From Promethearchaeota archaeon (GTDB lineage: Archaea; Asgardarchaeota; Lokiarchaeia; Sigyniarchaeales; SOKP01): a stretch of 64,000 nucleotides of DNA. A model generated the notes under the pieces. The model had not been told where the DNA came from. It made no database searches and saw nothing but the letters and a program-made list of their open reading frames with translations. Made by a program: the position numbers and the translations under genes. The stretch is taken from NCBI GenBank assembly GCA_011364975.1, contig RDOE01000001.1, positions 32,001 through 96,000 of the forward strand, written 5' to 3'. Positions 937-8,119 of this stretch are shown piece by piece. Each line of letters begins with the position of its first letter. Position 1 is the stretch's first letter.

Positions 937-2313
937 TTATTTTTGAGTTACCTGTTGGTATGCTTTTTCTAATCGTTCAACAGCGGAGTGAATATCCTCT
1001 GTAGATGCTCCAATCGCTGCATTCATTACAATATAAGGAGTTTTATAATCAGAAGTACAAGTACCAAATACATTTTTCTCAGGATTATAGACGCGAGGTC
1101 CTGTTACGCGGAGATTATACAATGCACCCCCTAATGCGAACAATTGCTCCGACTTCATATTATTTAATGACATCGCAACCGCAACAGGGTTAAATACTTT
1201 TAAAATTCTCTCATTATATTTTTTAGCTATAATTTTTAATTTATCTTCAAGATCTCTTCGGTTACGTTTTTGGTCTGCTAATAGTTTTTCATATCCATCA
1301 ATTCCCAATGAAAGCATGGAGATTAAAAAATTAACAATTGGGGTAGCTGAAGCTCTTCCAGCATATGCTTGGCTGATTCTTGTGATTGTCTCTTCATTGG
1401 GAGAAGCTATAATTGCTCCTCCTATAGGGGTAAGAGCATTTTTATCGGTTGATTGGATAATAGCATCAATTCTTCCTGCATCTATTCCAGTTCTAATCAA
1501 TTTCATCCACTCAGGACTTTGGACACCATATGCATTAATTACAATATGCACAAGATCATTTTCTTTAGCGAATTTACTTATCTCCTTAATATCATCATTT
1601 TCACGTGGGGGGAAAAAACTAGTAAGGGAAATGACTCCAAAACAATTTTTATCTAAGCTCTGTTGTATATCTTCAATAGGGATTCGTACTGCATCTCCAA
1701 ATATCTTACCTTTAACAGTTTTACGTCTTATACCCATTAAATCTAATCCTTTGATTAAAGATTTATGATCGATCTGCGGAACAATTACAGTTCTTTTATG
1801 CAATAATTTGTCGTCATTCCAATCAGGCCTCAGTGCACCAACAGTTAAGGCTAAAGCCATTCCAGTACATAGAGGTACAGTAATAGCACTTTTAATATTG
1901 GGAACACCGAATTTTTTAAGGAAGTTTAGGGCTAAGTAATTGGTTATATCATACATTATTGAACCTCCTGGAGCTTTAGGCTGCGGAGCTGTTAGGAATC
2001 CGCTTCGACCAACGCCATGACAAAATCCAGCAGAGGTTTTTTTGTGGAGATTTGAAGCAATTCTAGCTTCTCTTTCTCCAACTCTTGATGCTAAATTATC
2101 TTTATCTGTATCCATTTTAGAAAGCATTTGAAGAAAAAATTCAATTTGTTCCTCCGACCATGATGATTTAGGTAGATTTTTTTGTTCAAATAATATTTTG
2201 AGTGGTTTTAAGAAATTGTTAAAAACTAATTGTCCTCTATCTAATATATTTTGAGGAATTGTAGAATTCTTGAAAAATTCAATCAAATTATTAAAATCCA
2301 TTGAATTATTCAC
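937..2313 (-). CDS. spcS: O-phosphoseryl-tRNA(Sec) selenium transferase (SepSecS)
   Basis: Motifs VGEREAR, HGVGRSG...QPKAPGGS, QIDHKS, NAYGVQS, QSTDKN (PLP lysine), YAGRAS; adjacent to tRNA-Sec. Start may be the ATG at 2301. Confidence 0.97.
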   Translation of the reverse strand: MNNSMDFNNLIEFFKNSTIPQNILDRGQLVFNNFLKPLKILFEQKNLPKSSWSEEQIEFFLQMLSKMDTDKDNLASRVGEREARIASNLHKKTSAGFCHGVGRSGFLTAPQPKAPGGSIMYDITNYLALNFLKKFGVPNIKSAITVPLCTGMALALTVGALRPDWNDDKLLHKRTVIVPQIDHKSLIKGLDLMGIRRKTVKGKIFGDAVRIPIEDIQQSLDKNCFGVISLTSFFPPRENDDIKEISKFAKENDLVHIVINAYGVQSPEWMKLIRTGIDAGRIDAIIQSTDKNALTPIGGAIIASPNEETITRISQAYAGRASATPIVNFLISMLSLGIDGYEKLLADQKRNRRDLEDKLKIIAKKYNERILKVFNPVAVAMSLNNMKSEQLFALGGALYNLRVTGPRVYNPEKNVFGTCTSDYKTPYIVMNAAIGASTEDIHSAVERLEKAYQQVTQK

Positions 2314-2337: not shown

Positions 2338-2460
2338 TGGCGGCCCTCGAGGGGAATCGAACCCCTATCCCTCCGCAGGATAACTAGGTTTGAAGCCTAG
2401 CGTCAGAGACCACTTATCGTTAAAAATCTATAAGATTTTCAATTCCGACCGTCAAGGGCC
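2338..2460 (-). tRNA. selC: tRNA-Sec (anticodon UCA), 9/4 fold, CCA encoded, with a 30-nt intron (2414-2443)
   Basis: Hand-folded: 9-bp acceptor GGCCCTTGA/TCGAGGGCC, G discriminator then CCA, 6-bp anticodon stem GCTAGG/CCTAGT with loop CT-TCA-AA, long variable arm, 4-bp T-stem GGGG/CCCC with TTCGATT loop; 7-bp D-stem GTCGGAG-TGGT-CTCTGAC forms after intron removal. Confidence 0.97.
2414..2443 (-). other. Archaeal tRNA intron with canonical bulge-helix-bulge motif
   Basis: Central helix GTCG/CGAT, 3-nt bulges GAA and AAG, intron hairpin TTGAAAATCT-TAT-AGATTTTTAA; cutting after the 2nd nt of each bulge restores the D-stem exactly. Confidence 0.9.
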
Positions 2461-6494: not shown

Positions 6495-6676
6495 AATTTC
6501 TCACTCGAAAGATTTTTTGAATGGGATATAAAAAATGGCTATTAAGTTGAAAATACAATATATCTAATTAAATTTTATTGGAGTCCAATTATTATTGTAT
6601 TTAATTCGAGTATTTTTTAAATTTTGAATATTTTTTTAATTAATTACAAATAAAATTGAAGTATTGTAAGAATTAT

Positions 6677-8119
6677 ATGGTTAATATTATTGAAAAAATT
6701 CCCGTACATATTGGGTTGTTTGGTCATATTGACAGTGGAAAGACAGCCATTGCAGCTGTCCTAAGTGAATTTATTTCTACTGCAGGAATTGATGCTCATC
6801 CTCAGAGTAAGGAAAGAGGAATAACCATAGATTTAGGATTTACCAGCTTTATTTTAGGAGATTATTTAATCACTTTAGTTGATGGTCCAGGTCATTCTGA
6901 TTTGATTAAGATAAGCGCATCTTCAGTTGAAATTATTGATTGTGCACTATTAGTAATTGATATTACTAAAGGCCCTCAAGTTCAGACTGGTGAACACTTA
7001 ATTATGATTGAATCTCTAAATATCCAGAATATTATTGTTGTTTTAAATAAAATTGACCTTTTTAAGGGAAATATTGGTAAAGAAATTGAAAAAATACGAA
7101 AATTTTTTGATTCAACATCATTTGGAGCTAATATTCCAATTTATGCTGTTTCTGCGAAATTAAAAACTGGATTTGAAGAGTTAAAGGAAGGAATTTTGCA
7201 TAAAATTCAATCCTTAGAGATTGAAAGGAATACTGAAGGAAATCTAATAATCCCTATCGATCATCATTTTTCTATTAAAGGTAGAGGATCAGTGGTGACT
7301 GGGACAATTTTAAATGGTAGAATAGCAATAAATCAAATCCTTCATATATTACCCATTGATACTTCGGGTAGGGTTAAATCTATTCAAATTTTTCATAATA
7401 ATGTCCAAAATGCTGAAGCTGGAGATAGAGTGGGAATAAATTTTAAGGGGATCGATTTAAAAAGTGTTTATAGAGGTTGTTATGCGACAAACAATAAACA
7501 AGCATTTGATTATGCAAATATTTTAGATTTAGAAATTAAAAAGAATAAATTATTCAAGCATGAAACGCGTTTCGGAACTCAAGTTCATGTAACCATTGGT
7601 ATGGTTACTTCAGTAGGTTATGTTTTTCCTTACTATAAATTAAATCAAAAAAGAGTACAGATTGATGTAATTGAAGGAAAAAGTAATTTTAATGCTTTCT
7701 TATGGTTAAATGAAAAGGTATTAGTTAATAAAGTAAAAAATTTAATGCTAATTAGTCGATTAGATTTACCTCCAACAACTCTAAGGATATTAGGAGCTGC
7801 AACAATTCTAAATGTTCTTAAAGACCCCCCCACACTATATAAATTTAAAATTAAAAAAGGAATCATTACGAATCCCCAACATTCACAAGGAATTATTTGT
7901 TCTGGTTTAGCAAATAGCCTCGAAGGAGCAAAAAAAATTATAGGTAGAGCTTTAGAAACCCCTTACACGAAAGTAATAAGCCCATTTGGTACTAAAGGTG
8001 CAGTAATTGTCGGGGTAAAGGATAATATAAGCAAAATAGAGAAGGGTGATTTTGTTGTATTAAAAGATCTAAGGAGTTTTAAATTAAATCCAAAAAAATA
8101 TTTAAAAGGTCAAAGTTAA
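6677..8119 (+). CDS. selB: Selenocysteine-specific elongation factor (aSelB/eEFSec)
   Basis: GHIDSGKT, STAGIDAHPQSKERGITIDLGF, DGPGH, NKID, IDHHFSIKGRGSVVTG, C-terminal domain IV with PFGTKG; ATG at 6677 preferred to TTG at 6656. Confidence 0.93.
   Translation: MVNIIEKIPVHIGLFGHIDSGKTAIAAVLSEFISTAGIDAHPQSKERGITIDLGFTSFILGDYLITLVDGPGHSDLIKISASSVEIIDCALLVIDITKGPQVQTGEHLIMIESLNIQNIIVVLNKIDLFKGNIGKEIEKIRKFFDSTSFGANIPIYAVSAKLKTGFEELKEGILHKIQSLEIERNTEGNLIIPIDHHFSIKGRGSVVTGTILNGRIAINQILHILPIDTSGRVKSIQIFHNNVQNAEAGDRVGINFKGIDLKSVYRGCYATNNKQAFDYANILDLEIKKNKLFKHETRFGTQVHVTIGMVTSVGYVFPYYKLNQKRVQIDVIEGKSNFNAFLWLNEKVLVNKVKNLMLISRLDLPPTTLRILGAATILNVLKDPPTLYKFKIKKGIITNPQHSQGIICSGLANSLEGAKKIIGRALETPYTKVISPFGTKGAVIVGVKDNISKIEKGDFVVLKDLRSFKLNPKKYLKGQS

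Follow-up and report, generated by a model that had tools for sequence, protein, structure and literature searches.

Non-canonical bulge-helix-bulge (BHB) introns in archaeal tRNAs were reportedly described by Marck and Grosjean in 2003 and by Sugahara in 2008. The BHB motif is called 'transplantable' to stems and loops beyond the anticodon loop, and the two-subunit EndA lenient, in the available text of a review (Yoshihisa 2014, PMC4090602), which names the intron positions 3/4, 20/21, 22/23, 25/26, 29/30, 30/31, 45/46, 53/54, 56/57 and 59/60, followed by 'etc.'. For tRNA-Sec, the available text of three publications (Mariotti et al. 2016, PMC4989117; Santesmasses et al. 2017, PMC5330540; PMC9499178) describes a 31-nt T-loop intron in Lokiarchaeota, which agrees with the T-arm position given for it when the DNA analyzed here was read from sequence alone (hereafter the sequence-only reading), and the last of the three, a review, calls this case the only archaeal tRNA-Sec intron.

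Asgard archaea are also known to carry D-arm introns in tRNAs. The accessible text of a 2024 study reporting Sec tRNAs and 228 tRNA introns in three genomes (PMC11291895) and that of a 2026 preprint (bioRxiv 10.64898/2026.10.13.758758) describe introns that resemble the one characterized below in being missed by a standard annotator, in their canonical BHB motifs, in their repeated gains and losses, and in that two EndA paralogues are common. Unlike our case, these works center on Atabeyarchaeia, Freyarchaeia and Jordiarchaeia, and their main text, as far as accessible, is without tRNA-Sec introns. The full-text literature searched held no description of a D-arm intron in tRNA-Sec, although the supplementary tables of these two works may list some, and the word 'intron' is absent from the text of the Asgard selenoproteome paper; within this literature, the T-loop intron is the only tRNA-Sec intron in print. 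Because Asgard D-arm BHB introns and the Lokiarchaeota tRNA-Sec intron had both been published, a D-stem intron in tRNA-Sec comes as no surprise.

A tRNA-Sec gene with a D-stem intron

The gene lies in a 64-kb stretch of DNA (the window, to which coordinates refer unless stated otherwise) from a Promethearchaeota archaeon, an Asgard archaeon of the Loki type (GCA_011364975.1, contig RDOE01000001.1, positions 32,001-96,000). In its precursor form, the tRNA-Sec(UCA) gene covers 123 nt of the minus strand (2338..2460), with a discriminator G and CCA encoded. By comparison with intronless genes, exon 1 (2444..2460) holds the 9-nt 5' strand of the acceptor, a 2-nt linker, and nucleotides 1-6 of the D-stem 5' strand, and exon 2 (2338..2413) holds nucleotide 7 of the D-stem, the D-loop UGGU, the D-stem 3' strand, the anticodon arm with anticodon UCA at 2391..2393, and the variable arm, the remainder of this exon consisting of the T-arm, the acceptor 3' strand, and GCCA. 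Between the exons is a BHB intron of 30 nt (2414..2443), which can slide by one A (2415-2444) with the product unchanged. The intron site, between nucleotides 6 and 7 of the 7-bp D-stem, corresponds to standard position 15/16.

The joined exons (2460-2444 plus 2413-2338) are called by ARAGORN as a tRNA-SeC(tca) of 93 nt. The ARAGORN drawing and RNAfold give a 9-bp acceptor stem, a 7-bp D-stem and a 4-nt D-loop, and the RNAfold structure (-46.7 kcal/mol) has a 6-bp anticodon stem, a long variable arm with a 6-bp stem, and a 4-bp T-stem. The features of archaeal tRNA-Sec of the 9/4 type are thereby present, including the discriminator G and a 6-bp anticodon stem whose 7-nt loop holds UCA, and the archaeal 7-bp D-stem and 4-nt D-loop arise only once 2443-2414 is removed. 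The sequence-only reading had taken 2338-2460 for a tRNA-Sec gene that attains the 9/4 fold only after intron removal; the call on the joined exons and the intronless orthologues agree with the identification, and ARAGORN's tRNA-SeC call, obtained on the joined exons only, agrees with the dependence on removal. The GCCA encoded at the 3' end (2338-2341) is also found in 27 of the 30 Asgard tRNA-Sec genes listed; archaeal tRNA-Sec genes are said not to encode CCA in the available text of the review PMC9499178.

Judged from the available descriptions, this tRNA resembles that of Lokiarchaeota, which belongs to the same phylum-level group, in its UCA anticodon, G73, 9/4 fold and long variable arm, in the 7-bp D-stem and 4-nt D-loop given in the legend to Fig. 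2 of PMC4989117, in a similar synteny with EFsec a few kb off on the opposite strand, and in having an archaeal-type intron at a non-canonical position. It differs in that its intron is at D-stem 15/16 and no T-loop intron accompanies it, while many relatives have both: the T-arm is uninterrupted, and the insert of the Lokiarchaeota type (59/60) is absent. With the non-canonical archaeal BHB introns in the available text of PMC4090602 it shares the 4-bp helix and two 3-nt bulges, along with the cut by EndA and joining by RtcB that these predict, here as read from sequence. Unlike the cases listed there, among which 15/16 is not named, the host tRNA is tRNA-Sec.

Intron boundaries and the two folds of the D-arm

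Searching 61 relatives with RF01852 gave uninterrupted tRNA-Sec genes of 87-89 nt above the cut-off in 35 genomes, 15 of them of the same genus. The joined exons are identical to intronless 89-nt genes of the genus letter for letter through the D-arm, and the sole difference from the gene of one relative (G007) is one compensated T-stem pair. Comparison with intronless orthologues therefore sets the extra stretch at exactly 30 nt and fixes its boundaries without any motif.

The site was also scored with a strict motif rule, which demands a central helix of 4 bp, each strand of it followed on the 3' side by a bulge of 3 nt, with no fewer than 2 bp in either flanking helix, and places the cut after the second bulge nucleotide. 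Here the central helix pairs the exon strand GUCG (2446..2449, minus strand, as for all parts of the motif) with the intron strand CGAU (2416..2419) in four of four pairs; the same four exon nucleotides pair with UGAC in the mature D-stem, and the intron strand covaries with them. The 5' bulge GAA (2443..2445) has its predicted cut between 2444 and 2443, and the 3' bulge AAG (2413..2415) between 2414 and 2413. The inner helix is the intron hairpin (2420..2442), with 10 contiguous pairs and a 3-nt loop. Cuts after the second bulge nucleotide recreate the intronless orthologue exactly. When the intron letters were shuffled, 496 of 200000 shuffles kept the 4-bp central helix and at least two inner pairs at the site; the outer helix is only 2 bp long (C-G and G-U), and the strict scan over whole genes yields many spurious motifs elsewhere. 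The motif match alone is weak, and we therefore rely on the alignment to intronless genes. With all motif parts present and the boundaries fixed by orthologues, the canonical BHB intron at D-stem 15/16 claimed from the sequence alone is upheld, and the EndA cut it placed after the second nucleotide of each bulge is consistent with the canonical geometry in the available text of PMC4090602, where the first two anticodon nucleotides of a 37/38 intron sit in the central helix.

We conclude with high confidence that this is a working single-copy tRNA-Sec gene whose 30-nt BHB intron at D-stem 15/16 is removed by EndA/RtcB splicing. The mechanism is very likely ordinary BHB splicing; cleavage, ligation, and the conformer used in the cell are what we infer from sequence. 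The primary transcript would take a fold in which the D-stem nucleotides GUCG are paired to CGAU of the intron, at least when enzyme-bound, and this BHB conformer, captured by EndA, would offer the enzyme two 3-nt bulges to be cut after the second nucleotide of each. RtcB would ligate the exons, and the released GUCGGA together with the first G of exon 2 would pair with CUCUGAC into the 7-bp D-stem with its 4-nt D-loop. SerRS, PSTK and SepSecS would then act on the spliced tRNA; the gene for SepSecS lies next door.

Nearest-neighbour folding of the naked precursor prefers a non-BHB conformer by 4.9 kcal/mol. The minimum-energy fold (-48.3 kcal/mol, z = -3.2 against shuffles) forms six of the seven D-stem pairs around the intron hairpin, and mature-like D-stem pairs have a probability of about 0.87; the BHB conformer is at -43.4 kcal/mol, with an ensemble probability of about 0.09 for the pairs of the BHB helix. 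Such a fold is what one would expect if the 30 nt were retained as an extra hairpin in an enlarged D-loop of the mature tRNA, and the sole matching contigs from RNA libraries do carry the insert. We consider retention very unlikely, because the CGAU strand covaries with GUCG and 42 distinct sequences preserve the 3-nt bulges, two traits that a loop insert would not need, because the intron has constant ends around an interior that is free to vary, and because sister species have the same tRNA without the insert. The D-arm is, moreover, an identity element for PSTK according to the available text of the review PMC9499178.

The covariation involves both helices. We tallied the motif over 50 complete D-intron gene copies, taking the best of 15 candidate start positions per gene: all four central pairs form in 48 copies and three of the four in 2, every copy has an outer helix of 2 bp or more, and 40 have an inner helix with 2 or more contiguous bp. 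The D-stem obtained by splicing measures 7 bp in 48 copies and 6 bp in the other 2. In an alignment of 42 distinct precursors, with six pairs counted for each alternative helix (252 cells), the BHB pairs are formed in 250 cells and 15 cells are changed on both sides, a value reached by 0 of 500 shuffles (mean 2.2), although shuffle controls overstate significance because relatives share ancestry and are not independent. Slid controls had 1-53% of cells paired. An exon C to U change is matched by G to A in the intron in 7 rows, and GUCG/CGAU is replaced by GUUG/CAAU in several genera and by GCAG/CUGU in another family. For the D-stem pairs built on the same 5' nucleotides, the count is likewise 250 paired cells of 252, and both partners have changed in 10 of the cells. 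Both helices covary, so nucleotides 2449-2446 are selected to pair with two partners, one before and one after splicing, and the 5' D-strand of tRNA-Sec is under double selection, for its intron partner first and for the 3' D-strand later. The sequence-only reading had the intron holding the 5' D-strand, such that precursor and mature folds exclude each other. The exclusion stands, as neither helix can form alongside the other and covariation is seen in each, but folding favors the mature-like D-stem over the hold by the intron.

Sequencing data for the locus came from 17 DNA runs with at least half of the sampled words and from four RNA-library runs, three with a small word share (0.13) and one from the study of a run rich in these words. 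The exon-exon joint across 2414-2443 was not seen in the four RNA-library runs; RNA libraries of this kind rarely hold mature tRNA. One of them, a wetland metatranscriptome (X18), yielded a single 151-nt contig that spans 2337-2461, has the intron and shows 8 differences. It covers the whole unspliced gene, has no T-loop insert and differs in its flanks, and comes from a relative with the same layout of a D-stem intron alone. A second run (X20) gave one contig over 2367-2466, also from a relative, with a longer intron, and the other two (X19, X24) gave none. Because these are 151-nt pieces with genomic flanks, the matching contigs may be library DNA or primary transcript, and they have no bearing on splicing.

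Selenocysteine machinery and detection of the gene

The gene lies among genes for selenocysteine use. SepSecS (O-phosphoseryl-tRNA(Sec) selenium transferase; 937..2313, minus strand; PF05889, E 1.1e-109) begins 25 nt downstream of it and adjoins tRNA-Sec in all 37 other genomes of the genus that yielded the gene with its flank. The archaeal selenocysteine-specific elongation factor SelB/EFsec (6656..8119, plus strand; GTP_EFTU, aSelB_III and GTP_EFTU_D2 domains) is about 4 kb away. Elsewhere in the genome (3.74 Mb in 200 contigs), SelD (G000:C76:9141-9941, L098; 188 bits) contains a single in-frame TGA, located in its N-terminal HGUSCK loop, and is a selenoprotein dependent on this tRNA. A PSTK-like gene scores 166 bits, below the curated cut-off of 290.5. 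No second tRNA-Sec gene was found in this genome, which is rated 99% complete; there is one locus only. As the sequence-only reading had proposed, splicing must be a precondition of Sec decoding, given the in-frame TGA of SelD and a sole tRNA-Sec gene found to read it.

Enzymes for splicing are encoded as well, namely RtcB (553.7 bits) and two EndA-domain genes (102.9 and 66 bits). The first EndA paralogue (G000:C126, L086 1453-2055; 200 aa) is closest to the chains 3p1z_B, 3ajv_B and 2zyz_B, which are listed simply as 'tRNA-splicing endonuclease' and which we take to be catalytic subunits of crenarchaeal two-subunit EndA enzymes. The second (G000:C191, L087 1423-2040; 205 aa) is, by eye, without the catalytic Tyr and His. 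The two paralogues suggest a two-subunit (alpha-beta)2 enzyme, a type present in 44 of 60 Asgard genomes according to the accessible text of the 2026 preprint (bioRxiv 10.64898/2026.10.13.758758).

Standard tools overlook the gene. ARAGORN found 0 tRNAs in the 64-kb window, and none at default settings in the stretch of the unspliced gene, where its intron option produced a single false tRNA-Tyr call at the most permissive setting only. Rfam at gathering scores reported nothing in the window. At a permissive threshold, RF01852 (tRNA-Sec) matches the unspliced gene at 2428-2342 with 40.3 bits (E 6.6e-07) against a gathering score of 47; the alignment is proper only for the 3' two thirds of the gene (anticodon arm, variable arm, T-arm and acceptor 3' strand), its 5' end being forced onto intron letters, and intronless orthologues reach 57-68 bits, with 57.7-63.9 bits for near-identical ones. 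The suspicion that standard scanners may miss this gene is thus borne out for both ARAGORN and the Rfam gathering threshold.

A single copy that neither Rfam nor ARAGORN calls could also be a pseudogene, with tRNA-Sec inactivated by an insertion while the lineage gives up Sec. This is extremely unlikely, given that the exons are intact and equal to working-looking orthologues, that the splicing motif around the insert is perfect and shows both conservation and covariation, and that SepSecS, SelB, SelD with its in-frame TGA, and the PSTK-like gene are all intact.

Over the whole genome, ARAGORN with the intron option finds 22 tRNA genes, for 20 anticodons and 15 amino acids, 13 of them with anticodon-loop introns; without this option it finds 10, though completeness is rated 99%. 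Many tRNA genes of this genome are probably interrupted at positions invisible to ARAGORN. The accessible text of the 2026 preprint (bioRxiv 10.64898/2026.10.13.758758) reports D-arm introns missed by tRNAscan-SE, and an Asgard Sec survey ran Secmarker and tRNAscan-SE at default settings, according to its available text (PMC11227280).

Distribution and evolution of the intron

We took a census of intron positions in relatives. Within the genus, the 123 nt were searched by blastn over 42 genomes. For the family, we built a 57-position covariance model spanning the D-stem site to the T-loop site, which matched in 140 of 151 genomes of the class. All 94 matches from beyond the genus were retrieved and classed by the lengths of their 5', core and 3' parts; 89 of these belong to the 82 other family genomes that gave a match (87 searched).

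The 42 genomes of the genus comprise 16 with no intron, 11 with both a D-stem and a T-loop intron (in one of which the gene is truncated where its contig ends), 10 with anticodon-loop (37/38) and T-loop introns, 4 in which no gene was found, and one, the genome described here, with the D-stem intron only. Among the 82 matched genomes of the rest of the family, 38 have no intron, 14 a D-stem intron only, 20 D-stem and T-loop introns, 3 a T-loop intron only, 2 an anticodon-loop intron only, and one anticodon-loop and T-loop introns; one has two genes, intronless and with D-stem plus T-loop introns, respectively, and 3 are cut by contig ends, with the D-stem intron visible in two. The D-stem intron, identical in site and in its conserved ends, is thus carried by 12 of the 42 genomes in the genus and by 37 of the 82 further family genomes that gave a core match. 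It occurs in 10 of the 13 family genera sampled with matches, always at this site; its ends are conserved and the remainder diverges freely.

The T-loop insert is present in 21 of the 42 genus genomes and 25 of the 82 others. Relatives' inserts of about 30 nt, at T-loop 59/60 (the published Lokiarchaeota position) and at anticodon loop 37/38, combine with the D-stem intron in four main layouts (L040-L044, L056-L065, L067-L076; L106-L199). Two genomes of another family have three inserts: the one at the D-stem site is 46-48 nt long, the anticodon-loop insert 24 nt and the T-loop insert 27-28 nt. For the clade with anticodon-loop and T-loop inserts (L067-L071: G061, G035, G014, G015, G012), the strict T-loop motif would leave a 5-nt T-loop, and the register that leaves the usual 7-nt T-loop has three of four central pairs; this insert may have a relaxed motif, or the T-loop may be unusual. 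Two tRNA-Sec copies occur in each of four genomes (G118, L131 and L188; G114, L152 and L158; G142, L150 and L151; G076, L109 and L110), and in G118 one copy is intronless and the other has D-stem and T-loop introns. Such pairs may be true duplicates, mixed strains in the MAG, or exchanged alleles.

The sequence-only reading had considered the intron a rare and independent gain, and had proposed comparing intron positions across relatives. The census, which made this comparison, contradicts the claim, as the D-stem intron is common rather than private. That this genome is the only one of 42 in its genus with the D-stem intron alone, and that 16 members of the genus are intronless, would fit a recent gain private to it. 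We give this little credence, next to none: the same site, conserved ends and related hairpins recur in 11 other genomes of the genus, the intron is present in most of the sampled genera, the D-only layout is found in 14 further genomes of other genera, and carriers are scattered among non-carriers on the SepSecS tree.

The latter is a midpoint-rooted maximum-likelihood tree of 38 rows, 37 from the genus and one outgroup, which left out G027 (no flank) and G057 and G058 (partial). Carriers of D-stem plus T-loop introns are split over five positions, interspersed with intronless genes, the genes with anticodon-loop and T-loop introns form one clade (100/99), and this genome is sister (92/91) to a clade of D-stem plus T-loop and anticodon-loop plus T-loop genes. 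With carriers so widely distributed and scattered, the D-stem intron would therefore be old and repeatedly lost, or exchanged as whole alleles. By these sequence comparisons it is an old, shared, polymorphic feature of the family, not a private gain.

The intron itself is most similar to that of a D-only gene of another genus (best 25 of 30 identities), with 24-25 identities to several D-stem plus T-loop genes; being short and AT-rich, it cannot date the D-only state by such similarity. We also considered a simple loss of the T-loop intron in this genome and dropped it, since the similarities are split between D-only and D-stem plus T-loop genes. In a blastn-short search of the genome with the 30-nt intron, its own locus was the sole full-length match among the matches listed, the next best of these being 17 nt long (E 0.003), so that the listed matches give no hint of a repetitive element. 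The T-stem is GGAG/CUCC in most D-stem plus T-loop genes and GGGG/CCCC mostly in intronless and D-only genes, including this one. This split cuts across genera, which hints at two old allele lineages or lateral exchange.

Close relatives switch among layouts with no intron, the D-stem intron only, D-stem and T-loop introns, and anticodon-loop and T-loop introns. A more speculative account, which we think doubtful, is that introns are lost as a set, by way of reverse-transcribed spliced tRNA or interspecies exchange of whole tRNA-Sec alleles, with the D-stem intron serving as a conformational gate. If true, the gate would bar unspliced tRNA-Sec from SerRS and PSTK and would couple selenoprotein synthesis to splicing capacity.

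On the reading we prefer, ordinary BHB splicing of an old family intron, the finding is a modest extension of known biology, and its value is mainly in gene finding and in the series of intron polymorphism. Surveys of Sec use in Asgard archaea need a detected tRNA-Sec gene, and about 40% of the tRNA-Sec genes in this family bear the D-stem intron, many of them with a second intron. Since ARAGORN and Rfam miss the gene and the D-stem intron is this frequent, Sec use may be under-called in the family. Three BHB positions segregate among close relatives in one essential single-copy tRNA, which makes these genomes a natural series for the gain and loss of archaeal introns.
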